The notes below the pieces were generated by a model, which made no database searches, was not told the DNA's origin, and saw only the letters and a list, made by a program, of their open reading frames with translations. This document shows positions 17,696 to 40,338 of a stretch of DNA of 64,000 nucleotides, piece after piece; the stretch's first letter is position 1, and each line of letters opens with the position of its first letter. A program made the position numbers and the translations under genes. The stretch is taken from contig JAIPHX010000001.1 of assembly GCA_021734995.1 (NCBI GenBank), positions 52,590 through 116,589 on the forward strand. The letters are read 5' to 3'. The stretch comes from Minisyncoccota bacterium. GTDB lineage: Bacteria > Patescibacteriota > Minisyncoccia > Phycocordibacterales > UBA9973.

Positions 17696-19423
17696 ATGGA
17701 TACATCAAAAACACCAAAATTTGATAATGCTATAGATAAAATATTAGCAAATCTAAAACCTCACAAAAGAATATGTGAGCAATGTGAAGTAGAGTTTGAA
17801 TTTTTGGATACGGATATTGAATTTTTTAATAAATTTAAGGTTCCACCACCTAGGATGTGTTCAGATTGTCGCAGGCAAAGGAGGTTGGCTTTTGTAAATT
17901 ACACAACTCTTTTTAAGAGAATTTGTAATACACCAACGCATGATGAAAAGATAATTTCTTCAATTCCAGAAGGAACAGAATTTCCAGTTTATGATTTTGA
18001 TTCATATTGGCACGGTGACAGAGATTGGAAAGAATATGGAAAAGATTTTGATTTTAATAAATCTTTTATAAAGCAGTTTAAGGAATTATTTATTAAATCG
18101 CCTCAACCTGCACTTACTCGCAACCCAGAGAGTATTGATAGTGATTATACTTCATATGGGGTTCAACTAAAAAATTGTTATTATGTTTTTGGCGGAATGA
18201 ATGCTGAAAATATTATGTACACTGTCTGGCCTATGATGGTTAAAGATTCTGCAGATTTTCTTATTGCAGTAAACACGGATTTATCGTACGAAGGTGTATA
18301 TCCAGAAAATTGTTATAACTGTAATTTTGTATATTTTTCAAGAGATTGCGTAGATTGTAATTTTACTTTCGATTGCAGGAATTGTAACGACTGCTTTGCT
18401 TGTGTAAATTTGAGAAGTAAAAAATATTGCATTTGGAATAAACAATATTCTAAGGAGGATTACTTTAAAGAAATATCAAAAATTGATTTGGGAGATCAAG
18501 AAACATTAAAAAAATATAAATTAGATTTTATGAGTTTTGTAAAAAAATTACCAGTGAGAGCTACTCGAAATGAACATTCGGAAAATGTATCAGGTAATTA
18601 TCTAATAAATACAAACAATTGTTACAGTACAATGTGGGCAATGAATTCTGAAAATTTAAGTTTTACTGATTTTGTATTAAGATTAAAAGATTCATATGAT
18701 TGTACTGTTTCAGCTGTTGCTGAGAAATTATACAGTACATCAGGTGTCGGGAATAATTGTTTTGATGTAAGGTTTTCTACTTTTGGGAGAGATGTTCGTG
18801 AGTGTGAATATATAATGAATTGTAAAAATTGCACAAATTGTTTTGCTTGCATTGGTCTTGTTAATGCTAAGTTTTGTGTTTTTAATAAACAATATGAAGA
18901 AAGTGAATATTGGAATTTAGTTGATGAAATAAAAACAAAAATGTTAGAAGATAATGAATATGGAGAATTTTTTCCAATGTCAGTAAGCCCCTTCCCTTAT
19001 AATGCCTCTCTTGCAAATATTATTTATCCATCATCTAAAGAAAAAATTCTTAAGTTAAATGGTTGGTGGCATGATGAAGAGTCCGATTTTCCAAAAGGAA
19101 TAGAATTTACAAAAGTTAAAGATATTGAACAAAATATAAAAGATATTTCGGATGTTATTTTAAATAAAGGAATAATAAGCGATAATAATGGTAAACCGTT
19201 TAGAATAACAGAAAGAGAACTTGATTTTTATAAACGTAAGCAAATATCAATTCCAAATATTACTCCATACGAACGTATAATAAATCGCTTTTCTTTTGTT
19301 AATAACTTTAATCTTTTTAAAGATCAGTGTTTCAAATGTAAAACAGAGATTTTGAGTAGCTACGATACAAAAAATGGATTTAAGCCATACTGTGAAAAAT
19401 GTTATCAGCAAGAAGTTTATTAA
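17696..19423 (+). CDS. Cysteine-rich protein family member 1 (575 aa) with N- and C-terminal CxxC...CxxCR zinc-ribbon modules
   Basis: N-terminal CEQCEVEF...FFNKFKVPPPRMCSDCRRQRR; central DCVDCNFTFDCRNCNDCFACVNL...NKQYSKEDY and CKNCTNCFACIGL...NKQYEESEY repeats; C-terminal FYKRKQISIPN...CFKCK...KPYCEKCYQQEVY. Paralogous to the CDS at 32838, 36809 and 38620. Confidence 0.7.
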   Translation: MDTSKTPKFDNAIDKILANLKPHKRICEQCEVEFEFLDTDIEFFNKFKVPPPRMCSDCRRQRRLAFVNYTTLFKRICNTPTHDEKIISSIPEGTEFPVYDFDSYWHGDRDWKEYGKDFDFNKSFIKQFKELFIKSPQPALTRNPESIDSDYTSYGVQLKNCYYVFGGMNAENIMYTVWPMMVKDSADFLIAVNTDLSYEGVYPENCYNCNFVYFSRDCVDCNFTFDCRNCNDCFACVNLRSKKYCIWNKQYSKEDYFKEISKIDLGDQETLKKYKLDFMSFVKKLPVRATRNEHSENVSGNYLINTNNCYSTMWAMNSENLSFTDFVLRLKDSYDCTVSAVAEKLYSTSGVGNNCFDVRFSTFGRDVRECEYIMNCKNCTNCFACIGLVNAKFCVFNKQYEESEYWNLVDEIKTKMLEDNEYGEFFPMSVSPFPYNASLANIIYPSSKEKILKLNGWWHDEESDFPKGIEFTKVKDIEQNIKDISDVILNKGIISDNNGKPFRITERELDFYKRKQISIPNITPYERIINRFSFVNNFNLFKDQCFKCKTEILSSYDTKNGFKPYCEKCYQQEVY

Positions 19424-19467
19424 ATTTAAATAAAATAAAAAATAGAGCTACTTGCAGGGTCTTTCGT

Positions 19468-19579
19468 GGTTTTGCCTGCTGGCAAAACATCGCTCCGGCT
19501 TTCTTCATCTCACCACCATCCCAACACAAGACGCTTTGCCCCCGAGAGCATAAATGCTCTCAGATGCAAATCGTTGCGG
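19468..19579 (+). repeat. 112-bp GC-rich repeat element, copy 1
   Basis: ggttttgcctgctggcaaaacatcgctccgg...gagagcataaatgctctcagatgcaaatcgttgcgg. Identical (one mismatch) to 21644..21755 and contains internal hairpins. Confidence 0.6.
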
Positions 19580-19643: not shown

Positions 19644-20654
19644 CTAAACTGAGGCCTGTGGGACTGTTGCCTTTTTACAAACCAGTAACATGCAAGGGTA
19701 TTTGTTGTTCTTTCTATCGAGAAAATATTCTGTTTGATCTACAACTGTTAAATTATTTTCCTTAAGTAAAGCATCTATCCACCCTTTCTTGTAATAATGG
19801 TAATAATTTTCTGGATCCCCAACACCCACATGATCTTCGTTTCCAGTCTCACCATATTCGTATATGGGCACAACATAATCTCCTTTTAGTTTTTCTGTAT
19901 CCTCCACAGAAATCATAAAACAAAGTTGGCCATCATTTGAGATCATTGATGACATATCCCGAATAAAAGTGTGCATCCCTTCAGGATTAAAGTATGTTGC
20001 AACACCGATAGAAATTATGTTTTTAGGATTAAGATTTCTAAATTTCTTCGGAATACCTTTTTGTAAATCAGAAACAACAAGTTCTTGGTATGTCTCTTTT
20101 ACCACATTATTCTTTAACATCTGTGGAGATATGTCTGTCCCGAATAGTTTTATATTCTTACCTTCTTTTTGGGTTGCTTCAACCAGAATTTTTGCGGAAA
20201 GACCGGTCCCTGTACCTAAATCGAGAACAATATCGCCATCTGAAAGTTCAGCTGTTATAAGAGAAATTTTTTCGGAAAAAACTTTGAGAGAATTATCCTC
20301 TTCAAGAGCCCCATTGCTGTATTGTTCTCCTACTTCGTTTGAAGTCCAGTAATTATTCAATTCTTCCAAGCGTTCAGAGGACTTGGTCTGGATAAGTTCA
20401 AGTATGCAATTTTTTGATTCACTTCCGAGAATACCTTTCTGGCTTAATCCTTCCAGTATTTGAGGTACTTTTCTTTTTAGTTGCTGAGGCAAATTAAGCT
20501 TTAATGTACCTAAAATAAAACGGTATGCGTCCTCACCTTCAGGTGTTTGCAGTAATTCAGTCCTTGCCTCTCGTATTTGTAATTCTTGAGCGGCTAGAGC
20601 TGTCTCTGATGTAGGTTTTATTATAGGTGGTTGTTGTGCGGGTTTAAAAGTCAT
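19644..20654 (-). CDS. Class I SAM-dependent methyltransferase (336 aa) with an extra N-terminal domain
   Basis: Motif I VLDLGTGTGLSA, post-I acidic residue (FGTDIS), Rossmann-fold order. Confidence 0.7.
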   Translation of the reverse strand: MTFKPAQQPPIIKPTSETALAAQELQIREARTELLQTPEGEDAYRFILGTLKLNLPQQLKRKVPQILEGLSQKGILGSESKNCILELIQTKSSERLEELNNYWTSNEVGEQYSNGALEEDNSLKVFSEKISLITAELSDGDIVLDLGTGTGLSAKILVEATQKEGKNIKLFGTDISPQMLKNNVVKETYQELVVSDLQKGIPKKFRNLNPKNIISIGVATYFNPEGMHTFIRDMSSMISNDGQLCFMISVEDTEKLKGDYVVPIYEYGETGNEDHVGVGDPENYYHYYKKGWIDALLKENNLTVVDQTEYFLDRKNNKYPCMLLVCKKATVPQASV

Positions 20655-20709: not shown

Positions 20710-21507
20710 TTACTTTGTTGCAACAACAATCATATCTTCGGCATTTTCAGAATACTCACCACCCTCCCATCCAGAATAAGTAACTACTGAAGAAAATCCT
20801 ACTTTCCTACACATTTCTTCAAATTCTTCCTTTGTGTAAACTCGAACAGAGTAATCTTTTCTTTCTTCTTTACCATTGCTTTGAATAATCCATGCTCCGT
20901 TAATTCTTTTTGTTTGAGGATCGTATGAATCAATGATTCTGAGAGTTTTTCCTGTGAGAAGATTACGTTGTTCATCCTCTTTATATTTTCCTGACAGAAT
21001 TCTCGGTACATTCACATCAGTGTGCATTAAAAATTTTCCGCCAGGTTTTAGTGCATTAAAGAAATTTTTTAGCACTTTTTCATTTTCCTCATCTGTGTCA
21101 AAAAAGCCAAATGAGTAGAACATATTGATAACACCATCAAACCTTGAGGAGTATTGCAGGTCGAGCATGCTTTCCTTGCTGAAAGTTATATTGAGCGAAT
21201 ATGCTTTCACAGCATCGATCGCCTTTTGCAAATGAACAGAATTGATATCTGAGCCTACCACTTCAAATCCTTGTCGAGCAAGTTCGATGCTATGTCTGCC
21301 GTATCCGCATGGGCAATCAAGAACGCTAGCACCATCTTTTAAGGACAAGAGCTTAACTACTCCAACTACTTCAGTTACAGTTCTTTCTTTTAAACTCTGC
21401 TTCTTTTCAATAAGGTATCCTTCTTGTGATGCGTCTCCATCCATATAAAAATTACCGAAGAAACCATATTCTTCTGACCACCATGGATTTTTTGCGTCTT
21501 GAGGCAT
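20710..21507 (-). CDS. Class I SAM-dependent methyltransferase (265 aa)
   Basis: Motif I VLDCPCGYGRHS, motif II/III (GVINMFYSFGF ... LKPGGKFLM). Confidence 0.7.
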   Translation of the reverse strand: MPQDAKNPWWSEEYGFFGNFYMDGDASQEGYLIEKKQSLKERTVTEVVGVVKLLSLKDGASVLDCPCGYGRHSIELARQGFEVVGSDINSVHLQKAIDAVKAYSLNITFSKESMLDLQYSSRFDGVINMFYSFGFFDTDEENEKVLKNFFNALKPGGKFLMHTDVNVPRILSGKYKEDEQRNLLTGKTLRIIDSYDPQTKRINGAWIIQSNGKEERKDYSVRVYTKEEFEEMCRKVGFSSVVTYSGWEGGEYSENAEDMIVVATK

Positions 21508-21569: not shown

Positions 21570-21591
21570 GTTGCGGAGGCGGTGAGATTCG
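21570..21591 (-). other. 22-nt duplicate of the tRNA-Ser 3' end (att-like fragment)
   Basis: gttgcggaggcggtgagattcg is identical to 21749..21770 inside tRNA-Ser and diverges afterwards. Confidence 0.5.
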
Positions 21592-21643
21592 GTCACAGAT
21601 AATTTCTTCGCCGTCGCTCAGAAATTTCTGCGACCCCGCCTCG

Positions 21644-21755
21644 CGGTTTTGCCTGCTGGCAAAACATCGCTCCGGCTTTCTTCATCTCACCACCATCCCA
21701 ACACAAGACGCTTTGCCCCCGAGAGCATAAATGCTCTCAGATGTAAATCGTTGCG
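21644..21755 (+). repeat. 112-bp GC-rich repeat element, copy 2, abutting and overlapping the 3' end of tRNA-Ser by 3 nt
   Basis: Same sequence as 19468..19579 with one c/t difference. Confidence 0.6.
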
Positions 21756-21837
21756 GAGGCGGTGAGATTCGAACTCACGGTGCCTTTCGACACTCCTGTT
21801 TTCAAGACAGGTGCACTAAACCACTATGCGACGCCTC
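21753..21837 (-). tRNA. tRNA-Ser (anticodon TGA), class II with a long variable arm
   Basis: Reverse complement GGAGGCG-TC-GCA..TGC-A-CCTGT-CTTGAAA-ACAGG-AGTGTCGAAAGGCACC-GTGAG-TTCGAAT-CTCAC-CGCCTCC-G, with discriminator G. Confidence 0.8.
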
Positions 21838-22096: not shown

Positions 22097-22183
22097 TCGG
22101 CTATCATAGCAAAAAAAGCTCTTTTTCGCTAGTGCTTGCCGATAGCTATCTTGGTATTCATATCTGTGTTAATATCACTATAT

Positions 22184-22624
22184 ATGTATAGGTATTTAGG
22201 AATAGACTATGGAACAAAAAGAATTGGACTCGCTATTTCTGATGAAGAAGCACAGTTTGCCTTTCCAGAGAAGATTTTGTTGAACAACAACAGCACTATT
22301 GATGAAATTGAAAAGATTATAAAACAAAAAAATATTTCTGCTTTTGTAATAGGGGAGTCTTTAAATTTAAAAGGAGAACAAAATGCAGTTTACAATGATA
22401 TTGTACGATTTGGTGACTTGCTCAAGTCTAGATTTGAGCTTCCTGTCTATCAAGAAAAAGAATTTATGACTTCTGTCTTTGCTAGAAGTTCTACTGATCA
22501 AAAAAAAGATTTTAATAAAAGTCAAAAGCATAGTAGAGTAGAGAAGAAAAGATCACCAAAAGCAGATGCTAGTGCTGCTGCTTTGATTTTACAAAGATAT
22601 TTAGATAGAATGAATACAAAATGA
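22184..22624 (+). CDS. ruvX: Holliday junction resolvase-like protein RuvX/YqgF
   Basis: YLGIDYGTKRIGLAISDEEAQFAFP motif. Start trimmed to the internal Met; the ORF-track start at 22136 adds a hydrophobic leader. Confidence 0.7.
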   Translation: MYRYLGIDYGTKRIGLAISDEEAQFAFPEKILLNNNSTIDEIEKIIKQKNISAFVIGESLNLKGEQNAVYNDIVRFGDLLKSRFELPVYQEKEFMTSVFARSSTDQKKDFNKSQKHSRVEKKRSPKADASAAALILQRYLDRMNTK

Positions 22625-22950
22625 TTACCATTGATGATTTTAAAAAAATAGAAATAGTAGTAGGGAAGATATTGTCTGCTGAAAAGATAGAAGATACAGA
22701 CAAGCTTTTGAAATTGTCTGTAGATTTAGGAGAAGAAAGTCCAAGACAAATAGTCTCTGGTATTGCATTGTATTATCCAGATCCTGCTGTGCTAGTAAAT
22801 AAAAAATGTATGTTTGTGGCCAATCTTGAGCCAAGAGTTATTAGAGGACACGAGAGTAATGGAATGATTTTTGCTCTCTCTACGGAAGATGGAAAGTTTT
22901 CTTTACTTGAACCAAGCGCAGAAATACCACAAGGGACCAAAGCAAAGTAG
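22621..22950 (+). CDS. tRNA-binding domain protein (CsaA/Trbp111-like OB-fold, as in MetRS C-terminal domains)
   Basis: FKKIEIVVGKILSAEKIEDTDKLLKLSVDLGEESPRQIVSGIALYY is typical of the tRNA-binding-arm domain. Confidence 0.65.
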   Translation: MITIDDFKKIEIVVGKILSAEKIEDTDKLLKLSVDLGEESPRQIVSGIALYYPDPAVLVNKKCMFVANLEPRVIRGHESNGMIFALSTEDGKFSLLEPSAEIPQGTKAK

Positions 22951-24049: not shown

Positions 24050-24098
24050 TACCTTGTTTTTCGGCATTTTTATGCTAAATTATTAGAGCAAGTGATAT

Positions 24099-24260: not shown

Positions 24261-24974
24261 GTGAATATAAAAAAACTATACGAAGACGATGATATTCTTG
24301 CCATAGAAAAACCCTCTGGTATTTCTATGCATCAAGATGGAAGAAAAAGTGAAGATTTTACCATTGCTGATTGGTTTTCTGAACAATACCCCGCATCAAT
24401 AAATGTGGGCGAACCTTTTGTTTTCAATGGAGAAGAAATTAAAAGACCAGGGATTGTGCACCGACTAGATAAAGATACATCAGGAGTACTGCTTTTGGTC
24501 AAAAGCCAAGAAGCACATCAATTTTTAAAAAAACAATTTCAAAATACTGAAATTAAAAAAACATATATAGCTATTGTCTTTGGGCATATTAAAAAAGATG
24601 CAGGGGTAATTGAAGAGCCAATAGGTAGAAGCCCAAGTGATTTTAGAAGACGGCTTGCAGGAAGAGGAGCAAAGGGGGAGTTACGAGAAGCTACAACTGA
24701 ATACGTTGTGTTAGAGCGAGGAACAAGTAAAGATGGTGAAAAATTTAGCATAATAGAAGCACATCCAAAGACAGGTAGGACACACCAAATCCGAGTGCAT
24801 ATGAAATTTTTAAGTTATCCTGTTCTTTGTGATAAATTATATGCTCCAAAAAACTTTTGTCCTACAAAGATAGGCAGGCTTGCTCTGCATGCCAAATCAA
24901 TAGAGTTTAAAAATCTAAAAGGAGAGGCAATAAAAGTAGAATCCTCTTTGCCTGAAGAATTTACTAATTTTTAA
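24261..24974 (+). CDS. RluA-family pseudouridine synthase (237 aa; GTG start, no S4 domain)
   Basis: Catalytic motif GIVHRLDKDTSGVLLLVKS, plus KTYIAIVFG and a downstream GRTHQIRVH motif. Confidence 0.75.
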   Translation: MNIKKLYEDDDILAIEKPSGISMHQDGRKSEDFTIADWFSEQYPASINVGEPFVFNGEEIKRPGIVHRLDKDTSGVLLLVKSQEAHQFLKKQFQNTEIKKTYIAIVFGHIKKDAGVIEEPIGRSPSDFRRRLAGRGAKGELREATTEYVVLERGTSKDGEKFSIIEAHPKTGRTHQIRVHMKFLSYPVLCDKLYAPKNFCPTKIGRLALHAKSIEFKNLKGEAIKVESSLPEEFTNF

Positions 24975-24986
24975 AAGTGTTTTAAA
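24961..24986 (+). repeat. 26-bp direct repeat, copy A (overlaps the last codons and stop of rluA)
   Basis: ttactaatttttaaaagtgttttaaa matches 25512..25537 at 25 of 26 positions. Confidence 0.65.
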
Positions 24987-25025
24987 GAGTTTGCGTTTAA
25001 GTTTATCTTAAGTTAAACTTAGATT

Positions 25026-25301
25026 ATGTCTCTTAAAACAAAAGAAAAAATAATTGGGTTTAAAGATTTACGAGAAAACGCTGATAAATATATCAACGCC
25101 ATTGCAAAAGGTAAGTCTTTTACTGTTGTTCGTAGATCTAAACCCATTTTTAAAATAGTCCCAGTAGATGAATGGGGAGATGAAGGCGAATGGGATTCTT
25201 TGGTTGATTTTACTAAGTTGTCCAAAAAAAGTAAGGGAATATTAGCAGAAGAAGTCCTTGAGAGCTTGAAACGCATCAAGGATTATGAAAAAAATAGATA
25301 A
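25026..25301 (+). CDS. Type II antitoxin, Phd/YefM-like (91 aa)
   Basis: The small acidic protein KDLRENADKYINAIAKGKSFTVVRRSKPIFKIVP resembles a Phd/YefM N-terminal domain. Its stop overlaps the downstream toxin start. Confidence 0.5.
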   Translation: MSLKTKEKIIGFKDLRENADKYINAIAKGKSFTVVRRSKPIFKIVPVDEWGDEGEWDSLVDFTKLSKKSKGILAEEVLESLKRIKDYEKNR

Positions 25302-25518
25302 ATTCTTACAGAAGATAGATAAAAAGAACAGAAATATCATAGAGCAAATTGTTCATTTAATAATTGCAGGCAATCTATCAATGCTTGATACTAAAAAATT
25401 AAAGGGATCTAATACAATGTATAGGGTTAGGGTAGGGAAAGTTAGAATAATTTTTGGGAAAGAGGGGAATCAAAATATTATATATAGTATTTCACTTAAG
25501 AATGACCATACTTACTGA
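25285..25518 (+). CDS. Type II toxin, RelE/ParE-superfamily-like (77 aa)
   Basis: LKGSNTMYRVRVGKVRIIFGKEGNQNIIYSISLKNDHTY resembles the RelE/ParE core (compare ...LYELRVGDYRIIY...). A 17-nt overlap with the antitoxin gene is typical of TA operons. Confidence 0.5.
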   Translation: MKKIDKFLQKIDKKNRNIIEQIVHLIIAGNLSMLDTKKLKGSNTMYRVRVGKVRIIFGKEGNQNIIYSISLKNDHTY

Positions 25519-25537
25519 TTTTTAAAAGTGTTTTAAA
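25512..25537 (+). repeat. 26-bp direct repeat, copy B (overlaps the toxin gene stop)
   Basis: ttactgatttttaaaagtgttttaaa. Confidence 0.65.
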
Positions 25538-25571
25538 AAAATTGCAAAAATAAAGGGTTTGTGGTAGATTA

Positions 25572-26006
25572 TTGTCTATGACAGTAGCTAAAATAAAATT
25601 CAGTCCAGTAGATATAGAAGCTCGCAAAAAGCTTGATTTTCATTCTGGAGATACAATAAAAGTGTGGTCAAAAATTCCTGAAGATAAAGGCAAGTTTCGT
25701 TTGCAGGCTTTTGAAGGAACAATCTTGGCTCGTAAGCATGGCACAGAAGCAGGAGCTACTTTTACTGTTCGCAGGGTGGCTTCAGGGGTAGGGGTTGAGA
25801 GAATCTTCCCGTTATTTTCTCCGATGATTGATAGAATTGAAATATTAAAAAAATCCAAATCCAGAAAGTCAAAATTATACTATGTTAGAACAAAAGCAGT
25901 GAGAGATGTAAGAAGAAAGTTAAGATCTACTACATTCCAAGCTGAAGCAGAAGACTCTACTGAAGAAGTTGATAACACTGAGGTTGCAGAAAAGAAAGAA
26001 GAATAA
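25572..26006 (+). CDS. rplS: 50S ribosomal protein L19 with an acidic C-terminal extension
   Basis: GDTIKVWSKIPEDKGKFRLQAFEGTILARKHG...FTVRRVASGVGVERIFPLFSPMIDRIEIL. Confidence 0.85.
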   Translation: MSMTVAKIKFSPVDIEARKKLDFHSGDTIKVWSKIPEDKGKFRLQAFEGTILARKHGTEAGATFTVRRVASGVGVERIFPLFSPMIDRIEILKKSKSRKSKLYYVRTKAVRDVRRKLRSTTFQAEAEDSTEEVDNTEVAEKKEE

Positions 26007-32837: not shown

Positions 32838-34565
32838 ATGACTCCAGAAATAAAGAACTGCCAGAACTGCAAAAAAGACTTCACTATTGAGATAGATGAC
32901 TTTTCTTTTTATGAAAAAATAAAGGTTCCGCCTCCGACTTGGTGTTCAACATGTAGATTTCTCCGAAGAGCAGTTTTTAGAAATGAAAGAAAACTTTTTC
33001 GAACTATTAATGCAGTTACAGAGAAACCAACACTCTCTATTTACCCTGCAGAATCTGGATACACCATATATGATGATAATTATTGGGGAAGTGATAATTG
33101 GGACCCTTTTTCTTATGGAAGAGATTTTGACCGTTCGAGACCTTTCTTAGCTCAACTTTTTGAGCTGAATCAAGAAATTCCACACCCTCGCGTTAGTACA
33201 CTTAATATGATTAGAAGTGAATACTCTGCAAACGCTGTTGATCTTAAGGATTGTTATTTGCTTTTTAATTCTAATAACTCAGAAAATTCAGCATATGGTA
33301 ATGGTATAGATTTTTCGAACAATTGCTTTGATACTTCTCACATTAAACAATCAGAAAGATGTTATGAATCTTTCTGGCTTACCAAATGTTACGAAACGTT
33401 CTTTTCTTCTCAGTGTGAGAATTGTGTATCAGTTTGGTTTTCTAAAAATTGTCAAGGTTGTACAAATTGCTTTGGGTGTGTAAATTTAGTGAATCAATCA
33501 TATTGTTATTTTAATAAACAACTATCGAAGGAAGAATATTTATTAACAATAAAAGAATTGGAGCTTGAGAAATTCTCTAATTTAGAAAAGATTCAAAAAG
33601 AAAGTAGGGAATTCTGGCTTAAATTTCCAGTGAAGTATTTTACTGGAATGAAAAACGTTTTTTCTTCAGGAGAATATATTACTCATTCAAAAAACGTTCG
33701 TAAAAGTTTTCTTGTGAGAGAGGGTGAAGATTTAAAGTATGTGCAGTACTCCCAAGTGGGTTATTTGCGTGATGTGATGGATGTGACTGTTGTTGCAAAA
33801 AGTGAAATTGTTTATGAATCAAGTATCTCTGGCTGGGACTCAGCTCAGCTTAAGTTTTGTTGGGAATGTTGGGATGGAGGAATTGATTTCGAGTACAGTA
33901 TGTTTTGTGGGAGAGGAGCAAGTCATATTTTTGGTTCAGTTGCCATAAGTAGTGGAGAGTATATTATTCTCAATAAACGTTACTCTAAAGAAAATTTTTT
34001 TAAACTTCGAGATGAAATAAAGCAACACATGAATGAAATGCCATATATCGATAATCAGGGTCGTGTATATAAGTATGGAGAATTTTTTCCACCCGAGTTT
34101 AGTCCTTTTGCTTATAATGACACTATAGCCCCCGAGCACTTTCCTTTTTCAAAAGAAGAAATATTATCTTTTGGCGCAAAATGGTACGAAGTTCCAAAAG
34201 GAGAGTATGGAACAACCATAGGTGCGAGAGAGTTACCCGATAATATTGATGATGTAAAATCTGATCTTCTTGAAGAAGTTATATCTTGTGCTGACTGCAA
34301 AAGAGGATATAGAATAATTTCTTTTGAACTAGATTTTTTAAAAAATCACAAAATTCCCATACCTAGATATTGTGTTGATTGTCGTTACAAAAAAAGAATT
34401 TCTCAGAGAAACAAAAATATTTTTTATAATAGATCATGCATGTGTACAAATGAAGAGCATTTTCATGGAGTAAATAAGTGTCAAATTGAATTTGAAACGA
34501 GTTACTCCCCAGAAAGACCCGAGATAGTGTATTGTGAATCTTGCTATCAGAAGGAGGTTTATTGA
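32838..34565 (+). CDS. Cysteine-rich protein family member 2 (575 aa)
   Basis: N-terminal CQNCKKDFTIEIDDFSFYEKIKVPPPTWCSTCRFLRRAVFRNER; central CENCVSVWFSKNCQGCTNCFGCVNL; YGEFFPPEFSPFAYNDTIAPEHFP; C-terminal CADCKRGY...FLKNHKIPIPRYCVDCRYKKR...PEIVYCESCYQKEVY. Confidence 0.7.
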   Translation: MTPEIKNCQNCKKDFTIEIDDFSFYEKIKVPPPTWCSTCRFLRRAVFRNERKLFRTINAVTEKPTLSIYPAESGYTIYDDNYWGSDNWDPFSYGRDFDRSRPFLAQLFELNQEIPHPRVSTLNMIRSEYSANAVDLKDCYLLFNSNNSENSAYGNGIDFSNNCFDTSHIKQSERCYESFWLTKCYETFFSSQCENCVSVWFSKNCQGCTNCFGCVNLVNQSYCYFNKQLSKEEYLLTIKELELEKFSNLEKIQKESREFWLKFPVKYFTGMKNVFSSGEYITHSKNVRKSFLVREGEDLKYVQYSQVGYLRDVMDVTVVAKSEIVYESSISGWDSAQLKFCWECWDGGIDFEYSMFCGRGASHIFGSVAISSGEYIILNKRYSKENFFKLRDEIKQHMNEMPYIDNQGRVYKYGEFFPPEFSPFAYNDTIAPEHFPFSKEEILSFGAKWYEVPKGEYGTTIGARELPDNIDDVKSDLLEEVISCADCKRGYRIISFELDFLKNHKIPIPRYCVDCRYKKRISQRNKNIFYNRSCMCTNEEHFHGVNKCQIEFETSYSPERPEIVYCESCYQKEVY

Positions 34566-34646
34566 TTACTCAGCCATCTTTCTTGTCGTATTTTATAATA
34601 ACATGCTGACATAGTCAGCTGGTTTTGTTTGTGATATTATCATCTT

Positions 34647-36808: not shown

Positions 36809-38509
36809 ATGAAGACAAACTGCCAGAACTGCAAAAAAGACTTCGATATTACAAAAAACGACTTGGGATTTTATGAAAAAATAAAGGTTCCGTCTCCGAC
36901 TTTTTGTCCTGAATGTAGAATGATACGAAGGATGGCTTGGAGAAACGAAAGGCATTTGCACAAAAATAAATGTGATATTTGTAAAGAAAATATAATCTCA
37001 ATATACAGCGAGGATTCCCCATATAAAGTTTTATGTGGCTCTTGTTTCCATGGAGATGCATGGAATCCTTTTGATTATGAGATGGAAATAGATTTTTCAA
37101 AACCTTTTTTACAACAGGTAAAAGAATTACAGTTAAAAGTGCCAAGACTATATTCTTTTGTTTTCCAAAATACAAATAGTGAATACACAAACGGGGCAGC
37201 TTTCAATAAAAATTGTTATCTTATTTTTGTGAGTGACTACGATGAAGATTGTGCATATTGTTACTCTACTACTAATTCCAAAAATTCCCTTGATCTTTTT
37301 AATTCTACTGAAAATGAATTGTGTTATGACTCTTCTTCTTGTGTGAAGTGTTTTGCTGTTTCTTTTTCTGAAGATTGTGCCTCTTCCCAAAATTTAATTT
37401 TTTGTAAAAATTGCAATAATTGCAGTGACTGTATTGGATGTGTAAATTTGAGAAATAAAAAGCATTGTTTGTTTAATGAGCAACTAACAGAAGAAGAATA
37501 CAAACAAAAAAAGAAAGAGTTAAATCTTGAAAATAGGGAAAGTTTGAAATCATTAGAAAAACAAGCGCGAGAAGTTTGGAGTAAATATCCATTGAAATAT
37601 ATACATGGTTTAAAAAACATAGATGTCATGGGGGATTACACAAATAATTCCAAAAACTCTAGTTTTGTTTTTGATTCAAACTCAGTGGAAGATTCTAAAT
37701 TTTTAAATTTTGGTAGTAAAATAAAAGATTCGCAAGATGCGTATGTTTTAGTGGATGGTTCAGAATTATGTAATGAGATTGTAAGTGGTATTACTTTAAG
37801 CAACGCGAAATGTAGCTATTGTGTTTGGGTTGGATTTAATATTTCATATTCTGATACTTGCGAAAATTCCAATAATTTATTTGGCTGTGTGGGAGTTAGA
37901 AAAGGAGAATATTGCATTTTGAATAAAAAGTATTCCAAAGAAGAATATGAGCAACTTGTAGAAAAAATTATAAAACATATGAATGATATGCCTTATGTAG
38001 ATGAAAAAGGGATTGTGTATAAATATGGTGAATTTTTCCCCATAGATTTAAGTCCTTTTTCTTATAACGAAACTATCGCTCAAGAATATTTTCCCTTAGA
38101 AGAAAAGGAAGCTTTAGAAAAAGGATATAGATGGATGAAGAAAAAAGAAAGAGATTATAAAATAGAGATAAAAAGCGAAGAAATTCCACAAGAGATAGAA
38201 GGTGTAGGGGAAGATATTGTAAATAAAGTAATAGAATGTGCTCACAAGGGGGATTGTAATCATCAATGCACGGAAGCTTTTAGAATAAGGAAATCCGATT
38301 TTGATTTTTATAAAAGATTAAAATTGCCATTGCCAGATTTATGTCCAAATTGTAGGCATACAAAAAGATTTAAAACTCATAATCCTCTTCAGTTTTGGGA
38401 AAGAGGGTGCATGAACAAAGGGTGTCAAAATAAATTTAAAACAACATATTCCCCAGATCGACCAGAAGTGGTGTATTGTGAATCTTGCTATCAGAAGGAG
38501 GTGTATTGA
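36809..38509 (+). CDS. Cysteine-rich protein family member 3 (566 aa)
   Basis: N-terminal CQNCKKDFDITKNDLGFYEKIKVPSPTFCPECRMIRRMAWRNER; central CKNCNNCSDCIGCVNL; YGEFFPIDLSPFSYNETIAQEYFP; C-terminal FYKRLKLPLPDLCPNCRHTKR...PEVVYCESCYQKEVY. Confidence 0.7.
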   Translation: MKTNCQNCKKDFDITKNDLGFYEKIKVPSPTFCPECRMIRRMAWRNERHLHKNKCDICKENIISIYSEDSPYKVLCGSCFHGDAWNPFDYEMEIDFSKPFLQQVKELQLKVPRLYSFVFQNTNSEYTNGAAFNKNCYLIFVSDYDEDCAYCYSTTNSKNSLDLFNSTENELCYDSSSCVKCFAVSFSEDCASSQNLIFCKNCNNCSDCIGCVNLRNKKHCLFNEQLTEEEYKQKKKELNLENRESLKSLEKQAREVWSKYPLKYIHGLKNIDVMGDYTNNSKNSSFVFDSNSVEDSKFLNFGSKIKDSQDAYVLVDGSELCNEIVSGITLSNAKCSYCVWVGFNISYSDTCENSNNLFGCVGVRKGEYCILNKKYSKEEYEQLVEKIIKHMNDMPYVDEKGIVYKYGEFFPIDLSPFSYNETIAQEYFPLEEKEALEKGYRWMKKKERDYKIEIKSEEIPQEIEGVGEDIVNKVIECAHKGDCNHQCTEAFRIRKSDFDFYKRLKLPLPDLCPNCRHTKRFKTHNPLQFWERGCMNKGCQNKFKTTYSPDRPEVVYCESCYQKEVY

Positions 38510-38619
38510 TAATTTTTTTTCGGCTGTTGTATTATTTTTTAATCTTTATGGAATTAAGAGAGGAGCTTGCTAAAACTCTTTGATTGAATTATTAAATTTA
38601 TAATGATACCATTATTTCC

Positions 38620-40281
38620 ATGGAGAAGACTTGTAAAAGATGCCTGCAGACTTTTGTAGTGGATAGCCTTGAGTTAAATTTGTCTCAAAAAATGAATATT
38701 CCTGTGACTCATTCATGCCCTGATTGTCGTTTTAAACTTAGAAACGTTTGGCGAAATGAGATGAACTTATATTCAGGAGTAAAGTGCGGGCTATGTGATA
38801 AGAGTATCATTTCTATGTATAACCCTAAACATGGGTATGTAATTTATTGTAACAGTTGTTATGAATCAGATAGTTGGGATAAAAAATCTTATTTTGTAAA
38901 TTATGATGAAAATCGTCCTTTTTTTGATCAGTTCCAAGAGCTTTTCAAAAAGACACCAAAAGCTTCTTTGTATATATCCAAAGCTTCAGGGATAAATCTA
39001 AATAGTGATTATGTAAATTATGCAGGAGGAATTAAAAATTGTTATTTTATTTTCAATGGAGGACCAGCAGAAGACTCTATGTATTCTAGAGGAGTGGTAT
39101 TTTCTAAAGATTCTTCTGATTCATATTTTGGGATGAATGTTGATAGGTGTTATGAATGTGTAAATATTTTTAATTCTTCAGGAGTATTCTGGGGGATAAA
39201 TGTTAATAATTGCTTGGATAGTATGTTTTTAATGGATTGCAGTGGATTGACTAATTGTTTTGGTTGTGTGAATTTAAGAATGAAAAGTTATTGTTGGTTT
39301 AATGAACAACTTTCCAGAAGTGAATACGAAGAAAGATTAAAGACTGTGCAAGGGAGTTATACAAAAATGCAGGCAGAATATTTAAAGTTTCAAGAGTTTG
39401 CATTAAAATTTCCAAATAGAGAAAACCACAATTTAAAAGTTCAAAATTGTCGGGGGGACTATCTGATGGAATGTAAAAATGTTGTTAATTCTTTTGAAAT
39501 TGCTTCTTCAGAAAATGTTATGTTTGCTTTTTCAGCTAAAAAACTAAAAGATTCTCTTGGGGTAGTTGGCTTTGGGTTTAATTCCGAGTCTCTTTTTGAT
39601 TGTGCTGCAGTAGGATATTCAAGCAATGTGATTGGTTCTGTTATTGTTGAAAATTCACAAAATATCTTGAATAGTTTTTCTTTGTATGGATGTAGTGATT
39701 GTATTGGTTGTGCTAGTTTAAAAAATGGTAAATTTTGTATTTTAAATAAAGAGTATAGAGAAGAAGAATATAATAAAATAAAAGAAAAGATTATCCAAGA
39801 ACTAAAAGAGAAAGAATTATATGGTTATATGATACCTTCAGAGATTTCTCCGTTTGGCTACAATGAATCTATTGTCATGGATAATGCTCCATTAAATGAA
39901 ACAGAGGTCTTGGCTTTTGGCTGTAGGTGGGAAGAAGACTTACAAAAAACAGAAGGGAAGGAAACTATTAAAACAGAAGATATCCCTGATAATATAGAGG
40001 AAGTAAATGAATCTTTTCTAAAAGAGATTTGTGTTTGCTTTGATTGTAAAAGAAATTACAAGCTAACCTCTCAGGAATTTTCTTTTTATAAAAAAATGAA
40101 GTTACCAATACCACGAAAGTGTTTTTATTGTCGACACAAAGATAGATTACAAAAAAGAGGTCCATATAAATTTTGGGACAGGGATTGTGCTAAGTGTGGT
40201 AAAAGTATCAGCACCAATTATGATTTAAATAGACCTGAGATTGTGTATTGTGAAAGTTGTTACCAAAAGGAGGTGTATTAG
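38620..40281 (+). CDS. Cysteine-rich protein family member 4 (553 aa)
   Basis: N-terminal CKRCLQTF...CPDCRFKLRNVWRNE; central DCSGLTNCFGCVNL and CSDCIGCASL; ISPFGYNESI; C-terminal CFDCKRNY...FYKKMKLPIPRKCFYCRHKDR...PEIVYCESCYQKEVY. Confidence 0.7.
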   Translation: MEKTCKRCLQTFVVDSLELNLSQKMNIPVTHSCPDCRFKLRNVWRNEMNLYSGVKCGLCDKSIISMYNPKHGYVIYCNSCYESDSWDKKSYFVNYDENRPFFDQFQELFKKTPKASLYISKASGINLNSDYVNYAGGIKNCYFIFNGGPAEDSMYSRGVVFSKDSSDSYFGMNVDRCYECVNIFNSSGVFWGINVNNCLDSMFLMDCSGLTNCFGCVNLRMKSYCWFNEQLSRSEYEERLKTVQGSYTKMQAEYLKFQEFALKFPNRENHNLKVQNCRGDYLMECKNVVNSFEIASSENVMFAFSAKKLKDSLGVVGFGFNSESLFDCAAVGYSSNVIGSVIVENSQNILNSFSLYGCSDCIGCASLKNGKFCILNKEYREEEYNKIKEKIIQELKEKELYGYMIPSEISPFGYNESIVMDNAPLNETEVLAFGCRWEEDLQKTEGKETIKTEDIPDNIEEVNESFLKEICVCFDCKRNYKLTSQEFSFYKKMKLPIPRKCFYCRHKDRLQKRGPYKFWDRDCAKCGKSISTNYDLNRPEIVYCESCYQKEVY

Positions 40282-40338
40282 ATTTTTTGAAATATACTAA
40301 CATACAAAAATTGTTAATTATAAATTAAGTAGTATACT

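Follow-up and report, generated by a model that had tools for sequence, protein, structure and literature searches.

Between an rluA-family pseudouridine synthase gene and rplS, the gene of ribosomal protein L19, the 64,000-nucleotide (nt) stretch of Minisyncoccota bacterium contig JAIPHX010000001.1 analysed here (the window) carries two small open reading frames (ORFs) that form a toxin-antitoxin (TA) pair and are bracketed by a near-perfect 26-bp direct repeat. This raises the question of how the pair came to lie at this site, and if the repeat is the mark of a dedicated mobility system. The first-pass annotation had interpreted the arrangement as a cassette recently inserted in a site-specific manner; this reading is only partly supported. 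With slightly better than even confidence, we propose instead that a functional-looking TA operon sits in an insertion hotspot, and that the repeat is a short target duplication generated by microhomology-mediated or template-switch recombination and not an att site.

The gene order in the window is tRNA-Val, tRNA-Arg, rluA, the two small ORFs, rplS and then tRNA-Leu, with rplS as the downstream border of the insertion site. The features of the locus are:

24261..24974, plus strand: rluA-family pseudouridine synthase gene, 237 amino acids (aa); PseudoU_synth_2, E=7.6e-29; TIGR00005 (rluA_subfam), 189 bits
24961..24986, plus strand: left repeat copy TTACTAATTTTTAAAAGTGTTTTAAA, with similarity extending to 24994
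25026..25301, plus strand: Phd/YefM-family antitoxin gene, 91 aa; PF02604 and TIGR01552 above cut-off
25285..25518, plus strand: minimal RelE-fold toxin gene, 77 aa, assigned by family profile and predicted structure
25512..25537, plus strand: right repeat copy TTACTGATTTTTAAAAGTGTTTTAAA, with similarity extending to 25545
25578..26006, plus strand: rplS gene, ribosomal protein L19, 142 aa; PF01245, E=7.9e-30; TIGR01024, 97.6 bits

The direct repeat TTACTRATTTTTAAAAGTGTTTTAAA consists of two copies of 26 nt that are identical at 25 of 26 positions and start 551 nt apart, as determined with a repeat finder and by reading the sequence. The left copy spans the rluA codons T-N-F and the TAA stop (24972-24974), the right one the Tyr codon of the toxin and its TGA stop (25516-25518). 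The coordinates of the repeat and of both small ORFs, and the two gene ends covered, had been given exactly in the first-pass annotation. The similarity can be extended without gaps to 24961-24994 and 25512-25545 (30/34 identical), and the longest exact string common to both copies is the 20-mer ATTTTTAAAAGTGTTTTAAA. The left copy ends 4 nt 5' of the -35 box of the putative TA promoter, the right copy 4 nt 5' of that of rplS (see below).

Could the repeat be a chance similarity or an assembly artefact? The sequence has a high AT content and little complexity, and the 20-mer also occurs in three unrelated viral contigs, in chance matches that stop at the edges of the 20-mer. On the other hand, if up to three mismatches are allowed, the 26-mer is found at these two sites only in the whole window, and no such match appeared in 100 dinucleotide-preserving shuffles of the window. 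Two Logan contigs (L001 and L002), which are independent assemblies from other sequencing runs, show the identical arrangement with 0 differences, so that three independent assemblies agree. An assembly artefact is also unlikely because the exact repeat, at 20 nt, does not reach the length of a typical 31-mer assembly word. In addition, the positions of the two copies coincide with the edges of the inserted operon. On the strength of the shuffles and the three assemblies, we consider this explanation ruled out for all practical purposes.

As judged from profile matches and a structural model, the two ORFs are a genuine Phd/YefM-RelE type II TA operon of the ordinary type, in agreement with the first-pass annotation. 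The two genes overlap by 17 nt. The antitoxin passes the cut-offs of PF02604 (PhdYeFM_antitox; 30.9 bits, cut-off 29.8) and TIGR01552 (26.3 bits, cut-off 20.8), both marginally, and has 167 homologues, mostly in Paceibacteria/Nomurabacteria. The toxin of the window, taken alone, stays below the cut-off of PF05016 (ParE_toxin; 15 bits, E=0.038, cut-off 23) and matches no NCBIfam model. An exhaustive HMMER scan placed it in a family of 673 cluster representatives of about 77-81 aa that align over their full length. In an alignment of 80 sequences this family displays the RelE-type signature KKLKG...YRVRxGxxRIIF...R.D.TY. Its R47, R54 and C-terminal Y77 do not vary, whereas at position 72 the family has R and the protein of the window K. 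PF05016 is matched by 29/80 family members (best 1.1e-7). The family profile matches M. jannaschii RelE3 (3bpq) with E=3e-8 and P. horikoshii aRelE (1wmi) with E=1.7e-5, and E. coli RelE weakly (E=0.02-0.05). The hidden Markov model (HMM) alignment to E. coli RelE equates R47 with K52, R54 with R61 and position 72 with R81; Y77 would be the equivalent of Y87. The AlphaFold2 model (mean predicted local distance difference test score 84.8) has the topology H-H-E-E-E-E, that is, the helix-helix-four-strand arrangement of RelE, and the top five Foldseek matches are all RelE toxins, with TM-scores of 0.71-0.75 and a root-mean-square deviation of 2.0-2.3 A to 3bpq. The antitoxin matches, the toxin profile matches and the RelE fold together are the reason for this assignment. 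The PADLOC defence-system library gave no match.

The pair resembles RelBE and YefM-YoeB type II systems in its gene order, with the antitoxin gene ahead of the toxin gene and overlapping it, in an antitoxin that belongs to the Phd/YefM models, and in a palindromic operator that overlaps the promoter; the toxin would likewise share the alpha-alpha-beta4 fold of RelE and, as the alignment and the model predict, an Arg/Arg/(Lys/Arg)/Tyr set at the positions of RelE K52, R61, R81 and Y87. It differs in its unusually short toxin (77 aa), which lacks the C-terminal helix and on its own fails the ParE_toxin cut-off, in having archaeal RelE proteins as the closest solved relatives, and in belonging to a family that appears confined to the Candidate Phyla Radiation (CPR)/Patescibacteria and has a strictly conserved 22-bp operator. 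From what is known of such families, the N-terminal Phd/YefM domain of the antitoxin would bind the palindromic operator and repress the promoter, while its C-terminal part would wrap around the toxin and inhibit it. The free toxin, presumably a ribosome-dependent mRNA endonuclease, would cut mRNA in the ribosomal A site by means of the conserved Arg/Arg/Lys/Tyr set. Synthesis of antitoxin and toxin may be translationally coupled.

That the operon is not part of the ancestral core, as had been proposed, was borne out when we compared the rluA-rplS interval among relatives. In four of them (L005, L007, L008 and L011) rluA is directly followed by rplS, with a spacer of 50-90 bp that contains the rplS promoter. 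In others, the gap, which extends from 24975 to 25577 in the window, is filled by unrelated genes: hypothetical ORFs of 168 aa (L010, minus strand) and 166 aa (L168), a GNAT acetyltransferase on the minus strand (L177), treble-clef zinc-finger proteins of 567-594 aa (L006, L172 and the P0004 contig) and an SLT transglycosylase (L178). At least six unrelated fillers other than the TA operon occur in the gap. Because the gap is empty in four relatives and filled by unrelated genes in others, the TA operon is accessory and the rluA-rplS gap of Paceibacteria is a hotspot where insertions recur. Flanking repeats are absent from all the other fillers. The window itself comes from an uncultured, ultra-small CPR bacterium that is labelled Candidatus Pacebacteria in NCBI. 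Exact-protein look-ups of the toxin, the antitoxin and L19 revealed no strain-level empty-site alleles. The window itself encodes paralogous large Cys-rich proteins ending in ...C(E/V)xCYQ(K/Q)E(V/F)(Y/I) (17696-19423, 34478-34566, 38422-38510 and 40194-40282), which share the treble-clef zinc-finger type (weak PF23477) of the gap fillers in L006 and L172; the family seems to move and to expand in these genomes.

The composition of the repeat bears directly on its origin. Bases 1-14 of the left copy, TTACTAATTTTTAA, are the rluA codons T-N-F-stop, and the rluA orthologue on L085, a Logan contig from an unrelated run (SRR30502283) that is discussed below, ends with TTTTCTAATTTTTAG (S-N-F-stop). 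Since this orthologue ends likewise, the N-F-stop stretch is, by sequence comparison, native to rluA. Bases 1-7 of the right copy (T-TAC-TGA), in turn, are the Thr-Tyr-stop of the toxin itself, with the invariant Y77; toxin homologues at unrelated sites end with ACTTACTAA (L086) and, in another case, with ACATATTAA. Because both gene ends are evidently native, they share a 7-nt microhomology (TTACTRA) regardless of any duplication. At the other side, positions 31-34 of the extended repeat (TTGC) belong to the -35 boxes of two distinct putative promoters, those of the TA operon and of rplS. L168, which has almost the same rplS promoter as the window, likewise shows TTTTAAA and an A-run just 5' of the -35 box; because of this recurrence, the 3' part of the right copy looks native to the target. 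Only the perfect TTTTTAAAAGTGTTTTAAA stretch is left as truly requiring a duplication event. The claim that the repeat duplicates the 3' end of rluA is therefore only half true: the right copy begins with 7 nt of conserved toxin codons, which represent microhomology. A role of the repeat as a terminator or structured RNA was rejected: its hairpin is weak (-2 kcal/mol, no better than shuffled sequence), no terminators are predicted between rluA, the TA genes and rplS, and Rfam detected tRNAs only.

If the repeat were the footprint of site-specific integration, the 26-mer would represent the core of attL and attR sites, and a tyrosine recombinase supplied in trans would have acted on it, as for a cis-mobilisable element or a module exploiting Xer; the TA mini-cassette would bring along a replacement 3' end, leaving rluA intact. 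The position of the repeat exactly at the cassette edges, with reading frame and stop of rluA restored, fits this idea, and so does the near-identity of the two copies, which a fresh integration would produce. Furthermore, the core TTTTTAA-AAGTGTT-TTAAAAA can be read as 7-bp inverted arms around a 7-bp centre, and the same cassette sub-family occupies the same site in a second lineage. The A/T-only arms are weak evidence in DNA of 34% GC, however, and the conserved toxin codons account for bases 1-7 of the right copy. L085 has no core in its left flank beyond the rluA-coded bases, and the lack of repeats at the other gap fillers speaks against the idea as well.

If the cassette family moved by such a mechanism, flanking repeats should be seen elsewhere. 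For every cassette with enough flanking sequence, we compared the 123 nt upstream of the promoter with 180 nt around and after the toxin stop, using mismatched locus pairs as the null (99th percentile 12, maximum 16). The window scored 23, the other 47 cassettes 12 or less; none of these 47 genomic copies (0/47) has a flanking repeat above background, and flanking repeats were accordingly dropped as a hallmark of the family. When all ORFs of the window with 80 aa or more were screened heuristically with phmmer, using approximate XerD and resolvase queries, no recombinase-like ORF turned up. The GC skew is uniformly positive, which rules out a dif or terminus location. Other vehicles fared no better. 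The cassette contains the two TA genes only, without a transposase ORF and without terminal inverted repeats at its ends, and the 26-bp duplication compares with typical values of 2-14 bp, so that a target-site duplication by a transposon or insertion sequence was discarded. An integron gene cassette was rejected on account of the cassette's own promoter and the lack of an attC-like imperfect inverted repeat and of an array. The operator probe matched no viral contig, the viral matches of the 20-mer do not extend, and a tblastn search of the antitoxin against plasmids and phages gave one weak mycobacterial Phd match only; a phage or plasmid vehicle was set aside for these reasons. Taken together, we regard site-specific integration as rather improbable, and the claim of site-specific insertion was not upheld by the counts across the family, the other gap fillers and the recombinase screen.

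The window holds another recombinase-less cassette bracketed by repeats, at tRNA-Ser, which can be counted in favour of site-specific integration. A 116-nt direct repeat (19464-19579 and 21641-21756; 98% identical, 99 nt exact) near tRNA-Ser(tga) brackets two S-adenosylmethionine (SAM)-methyltransferase genes on the minus strand (19644-20654 and 20710-21507). In addition, the 3' end of tRNA-Ser has a perfect 22-nt duplicate 180 nt away (21570-21591 and 21750-21771). The structure resembles a nested att-type duplication at a tRNA 3' end; there is no integrase between the repeats, and no Rfam RNA in the repeat. One might go further and view the TA operon as a recombinase-less mobile CPR mini-cassette that homes to the 3' ends of housekeeping genes by means of an att-like core of about 26 bp and a host recombinase (Xer-like or other), with a fresh integration in the window and the methyltransferase cassette at tRNA-Ser as a second product of the same machinery; we consider this bolder proposal very improbable.

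The wider distribution of the cassette shows what its natural unit is. With the operator motif AAGnTTATCTTAAGTTAAACTT as a DNA probe, we retrieved 75 metagenome stretches with the exact motif. A homologous antitoxin lies 27-30 nt 3' of the operator in about 60 of the 75, and the toxin is present too in 51. This strict conservation of the operator is unusually strong, as the antitoxins of the family are only 45-75% identical. The antitoxin and its 77-78-aa partner follow each other in unrelated contexts, for example after clpB (L086) or after a cytidylyltransferase gene (L087-L092), and in all these cases the palindrome precedes them. In flank alignments, homology between cassettes begins with the -35 hexamer on the left and ends exactly with the toxin stop on the right. 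Because conservation of the flanks stops at these two points, the conserved unit is a minimal self-promoted operon, from -35 box to toxin stop, that is scattered over many unrelated intergenic sites. To judge from these sequences, the family appears to be restricted to CPR/Patescibacteria metagenomes. A GTTTTCCACA box 7 nt 5' of the -35 box occurs in one sub-clade, in 15/47 distinct upstream regions; for that reason, and with a frequency in the window at chance level, it was rejected as a family-wide cassette end. On contig L094 (192-1590), a member of the TA family lies between ruvX and a tRNA-binding-domain gene without a flanking repeat; in the window these two genes overlap by 4 nt (22136-22950), which provides a second pair of filled and empty sites.

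The regulatory elements that border the repeat are:

24991..25019, plus strand: putative TA promoter; -35 TTGCGT (24991-24996), 17-nt spacer, -10 TAAACT (25014-25019)
24999..25020, no strand assigned: palindromic operator-like site AAGTTTATCTTAAGTTAAACTT, 22 bp, overlapping the spacer and -10 box of the TA promoter
25542..25570, plus strand: putative rplS promoter; -35 TTGCAA (25542-25547), 17-nt spacer, -10 TAGATT (25565-25570)

We infer both promoters solely from their conservation across loci. A -35 box (TTGACA/TTGCAt) abuts the operator in 47/47 distinct cassette upstream regions, and the -10 box TAAACT sits within the right operator arm. The operator-like site matches itself on the opposite strand and, when folded as a hairpin, gives -8.7 kcal/mol (z=-3.1). 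The rplS promoter pattern TTGCnn-(16-17)-TA(G/A/T)A(T/G)T is kept in L005, L006, L007, L008, L010, L011, L168 and L177; clade-wide, this promoter is located directly after the rluA stop or overlaps it. The TA operon is thus probably transcribed from its own sigma-70-like promoter and may be autoregulated by the antitoxin or the TA complex.

With a putative promoter directly behind each copy, the repeat could also be a selected regulatory duplicate: the AT-rich 19-mer would serve as an UP element, curved DNA or a factor-binding site and be kept identical by selection. UP elements typically contain phased T/A tracts, exactly 4 nt separate the end of each copy from a TTGC -35 box, and TTTTAAA is also found 5' of the rplS -35 box in L168, a relative independent of L085. 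Yet the orthologous left flank of L085 is not conserved in the 19-mer stretch, and other cassettes have unrelated sequence 5' of the -35 box. Moreover, selection for an UP element explains neither 20 base-perfect nt nor coding bases from two genes. We consider this possibility very improbable.

When did the operon arrive, and when did the repeat arise? L085 is central to both questions. It shows tRNA-Val, tRNA-Arg and rluA, followed by the same antitoxin at the same position, with a promoter and an operator nearly identical to those of the window. The RluA proteins are 68% identical, the antitoxins 87%, the next best antitoxin homologue reaching 75%. Synonymous divergence (dS) between window and L085 is 1.30 for rluA and 0.87 for the antitoxin, values near saturation, and the difference is not significant on 55 synonymous sites. 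Third-position GC content (GC3) is 0.26-0.27 in the cassette and 0.21-0.26 in its neighbours, so without a foreign signal; a transfer of the TA genes later than rluA between the two lineages was rejected on both grounds. In a neighbour-joining tree, the RluA proteins of window and L085 are sisters with weak support (exclusive in 73/200 bootstraps, in a clade of at most four in 117/200). Because L085 carries the same antitoxin at the same site despite the near-saturated dS, the insertion is probably old, a single event inherited by both lineages, and the description of the cassette as recently inserted does not agree with this. The spacer from pilM to tRNA-Val (24050-24098 in the window, 40-88 in L085) is about 90% identical despite the saturated synonymous sites next to it; a conserved promoter of the tRNA operon, TTTTTATGCTAAATTATTAGAGC, is probably located there.

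In its present form, the repeat appears to be younger. The left flank of L085 has only its rluA-coded part and lacks the non-coding core. Between the rluA stop and the -35 box, window and L085 agree at 12/20 alignment columns, with 5 gaps (12/15 ungapped), and the probability that a stretch of 19-20 nt stays unchanged by chance is about 0.0005 even at a divergence of d=0.4. As a neutral stretch of this length cannot remain identical over the divergence of these lineages, the present repeat must be young. We therefore moderately favour that it arose, or was re-perfected, later in the lineage of the window over an independent fresh acquisition; both timing options involve microhomology-mediated mechanisms that are not site-specific.

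The second option deserves consideration in its own right. Here the repeat is the primary scar of a recent independent acquisition, a target duplication of 19-26 bp made at entry, and L085 obtained a sister cassette separately, in the same hotspot. The near-identical copies with sharp boundaries on both sides would be explained, the gap is known to be hit repeatedly by different genes, the grouping of the two RluA proteins is weakly supported, and dS is lower for the antitoxin than for rluA, insignificant as this difference is. However, the L085 antitoxin is by far the closest to that of the window (87% versus at most 75% for all others), lies at the same position and is preceded by an alignable spacer. 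The GC3 of the cassette is indistinguishable from that of its neighbours, and the three available assemblies are identical and show no presence/absence polymorphism of the operon. We see a recent acquisition as unlikely, though deserving more credit than site-specific integration.

According to our preferred explanation, microhomology-mediated or template-switch recombination, the 26-bp repeat would be duplicated target DNA, made up of the rluA 3' end and the AT-rich stretch 5' of the rplS promoter. It flanks the operon on both sides, directly at the outer edges, and its 5' boundary would fall within the TTACTRA microhomology of the rluA end and the toxin Thr-Tyr-stop. Because this boundary lies in a 7-nt microhomology, microhomology-mediated illegitimate recombination or replication template switching accounts for it best. 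The duplication may have formed when the operon was inserted or, which is more likely given L085, afterwards, when a quasi-repeat was perfected from a template or underwent short-patch conversion; this template switch or conversion would have been primed by the TTACTRA(TTT) quasi-repeat. Loss of the operon through recombination between the two copies would be counter-selected by the addiction effect, and the bracket may persist for that reason.

Several points weigh against this explanation and have to be kept in mind. A duplication of 26 bp is longer than typical microhomology-mediated duplications, and the 7-7-7 core superficially resembles the core site of a tyrosine recombinase. The recombinase screen had the 64-kb window as its scope and used approximate queries; given the tRNA-Ser cassette 3 kb away, there is a small residual chance of a recombinase acting in trans from elsewhere in the genome. 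The timing cuts both ways: if window and L085 inherited the insertion from a common ancestor, the scar of that event cannot be the present repeat, and if the repeat is the scar, sister cassettes entered independently at the same spot, which would hint at a site preference. The L085 contig ends 19 nt past the antitoxin stop, inside the toxin gene, so that the right junction lies off the contig. The first-pass annotation had named a relative with the same pair at this site and no flanking repeats as evidence against its reading; the left flank of L085 comes close to this, the right junction being off the contig. Finally, a generic sigma-70 scan flagged neither the TA promoter nor the rplS promoter. 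As the rplS promoter is conserved and was nevertheless missed, this suggests that CPR promoters have a TTGC-type -35 box.

Known systems provide partial parallels. Chromosomal TA modules are found between housekeeping genes, such as ccdO157 between folA and apaH in E. coli. Like these, the module in the window is a two-gene addiction module without mobility genes of its own and with an empty site in close relatives; it differs in being bracketed by a near-perfect 26-bp duplication, and in occupying a site that has been used by at least six unrelated inserts. Integrase att duplications at gene 3' ends, cis-mobilisable elements and Xer-dependent dif modules with TA genes have in common with the window a repeat that holds the 3' end of an intact target gene and a small cargo without its own recombinase. 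Unlike in those systems, the screen of the window detected no recombinase, other insertions of the family lack the repeat, part of the repeat is coding sequence of the cargo gene itself, and the locus lies outside a dif or terminus region. Further parallels are quasi-repeat correction mutations by replication template switching, as in bacteria and phage T4, and microhomology-mediated duplications. The tract in the window is similar in being short, sharp-edged, perfect inside and in starting in microhomology; here, the mechanism is read from the sequence pattern, and 20-26 nt over 551 nt would be at the long end. Literature searches turned up no earlier description of TA operons in CPR bacteria that are bracketed by repeats.

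Overall, we are dealing with a RelE/Phd TA operon of a known kind that carries a probable scar of illegitimate recombination, and the finding matters modestly. It documents a large, seemingly CPR-restricted TA family that combines a Phd/YefM antitoxin with a minimal RelE toxin and an unusually conserved operator. It also indicates that streamlined Paceibacteria genomes still hold a recurrent insertion hotspot, the rluA-rplS gap. The near-perfect 26-bp bracket would record, in a rare and datable form, how small operons become part of such genomes, or are rearranged in them, without mobility genes. If the minority reading of site-specific integration were true, the locus would point to a cassette-mobilisation system in CPR bacteria that has not been described so far.

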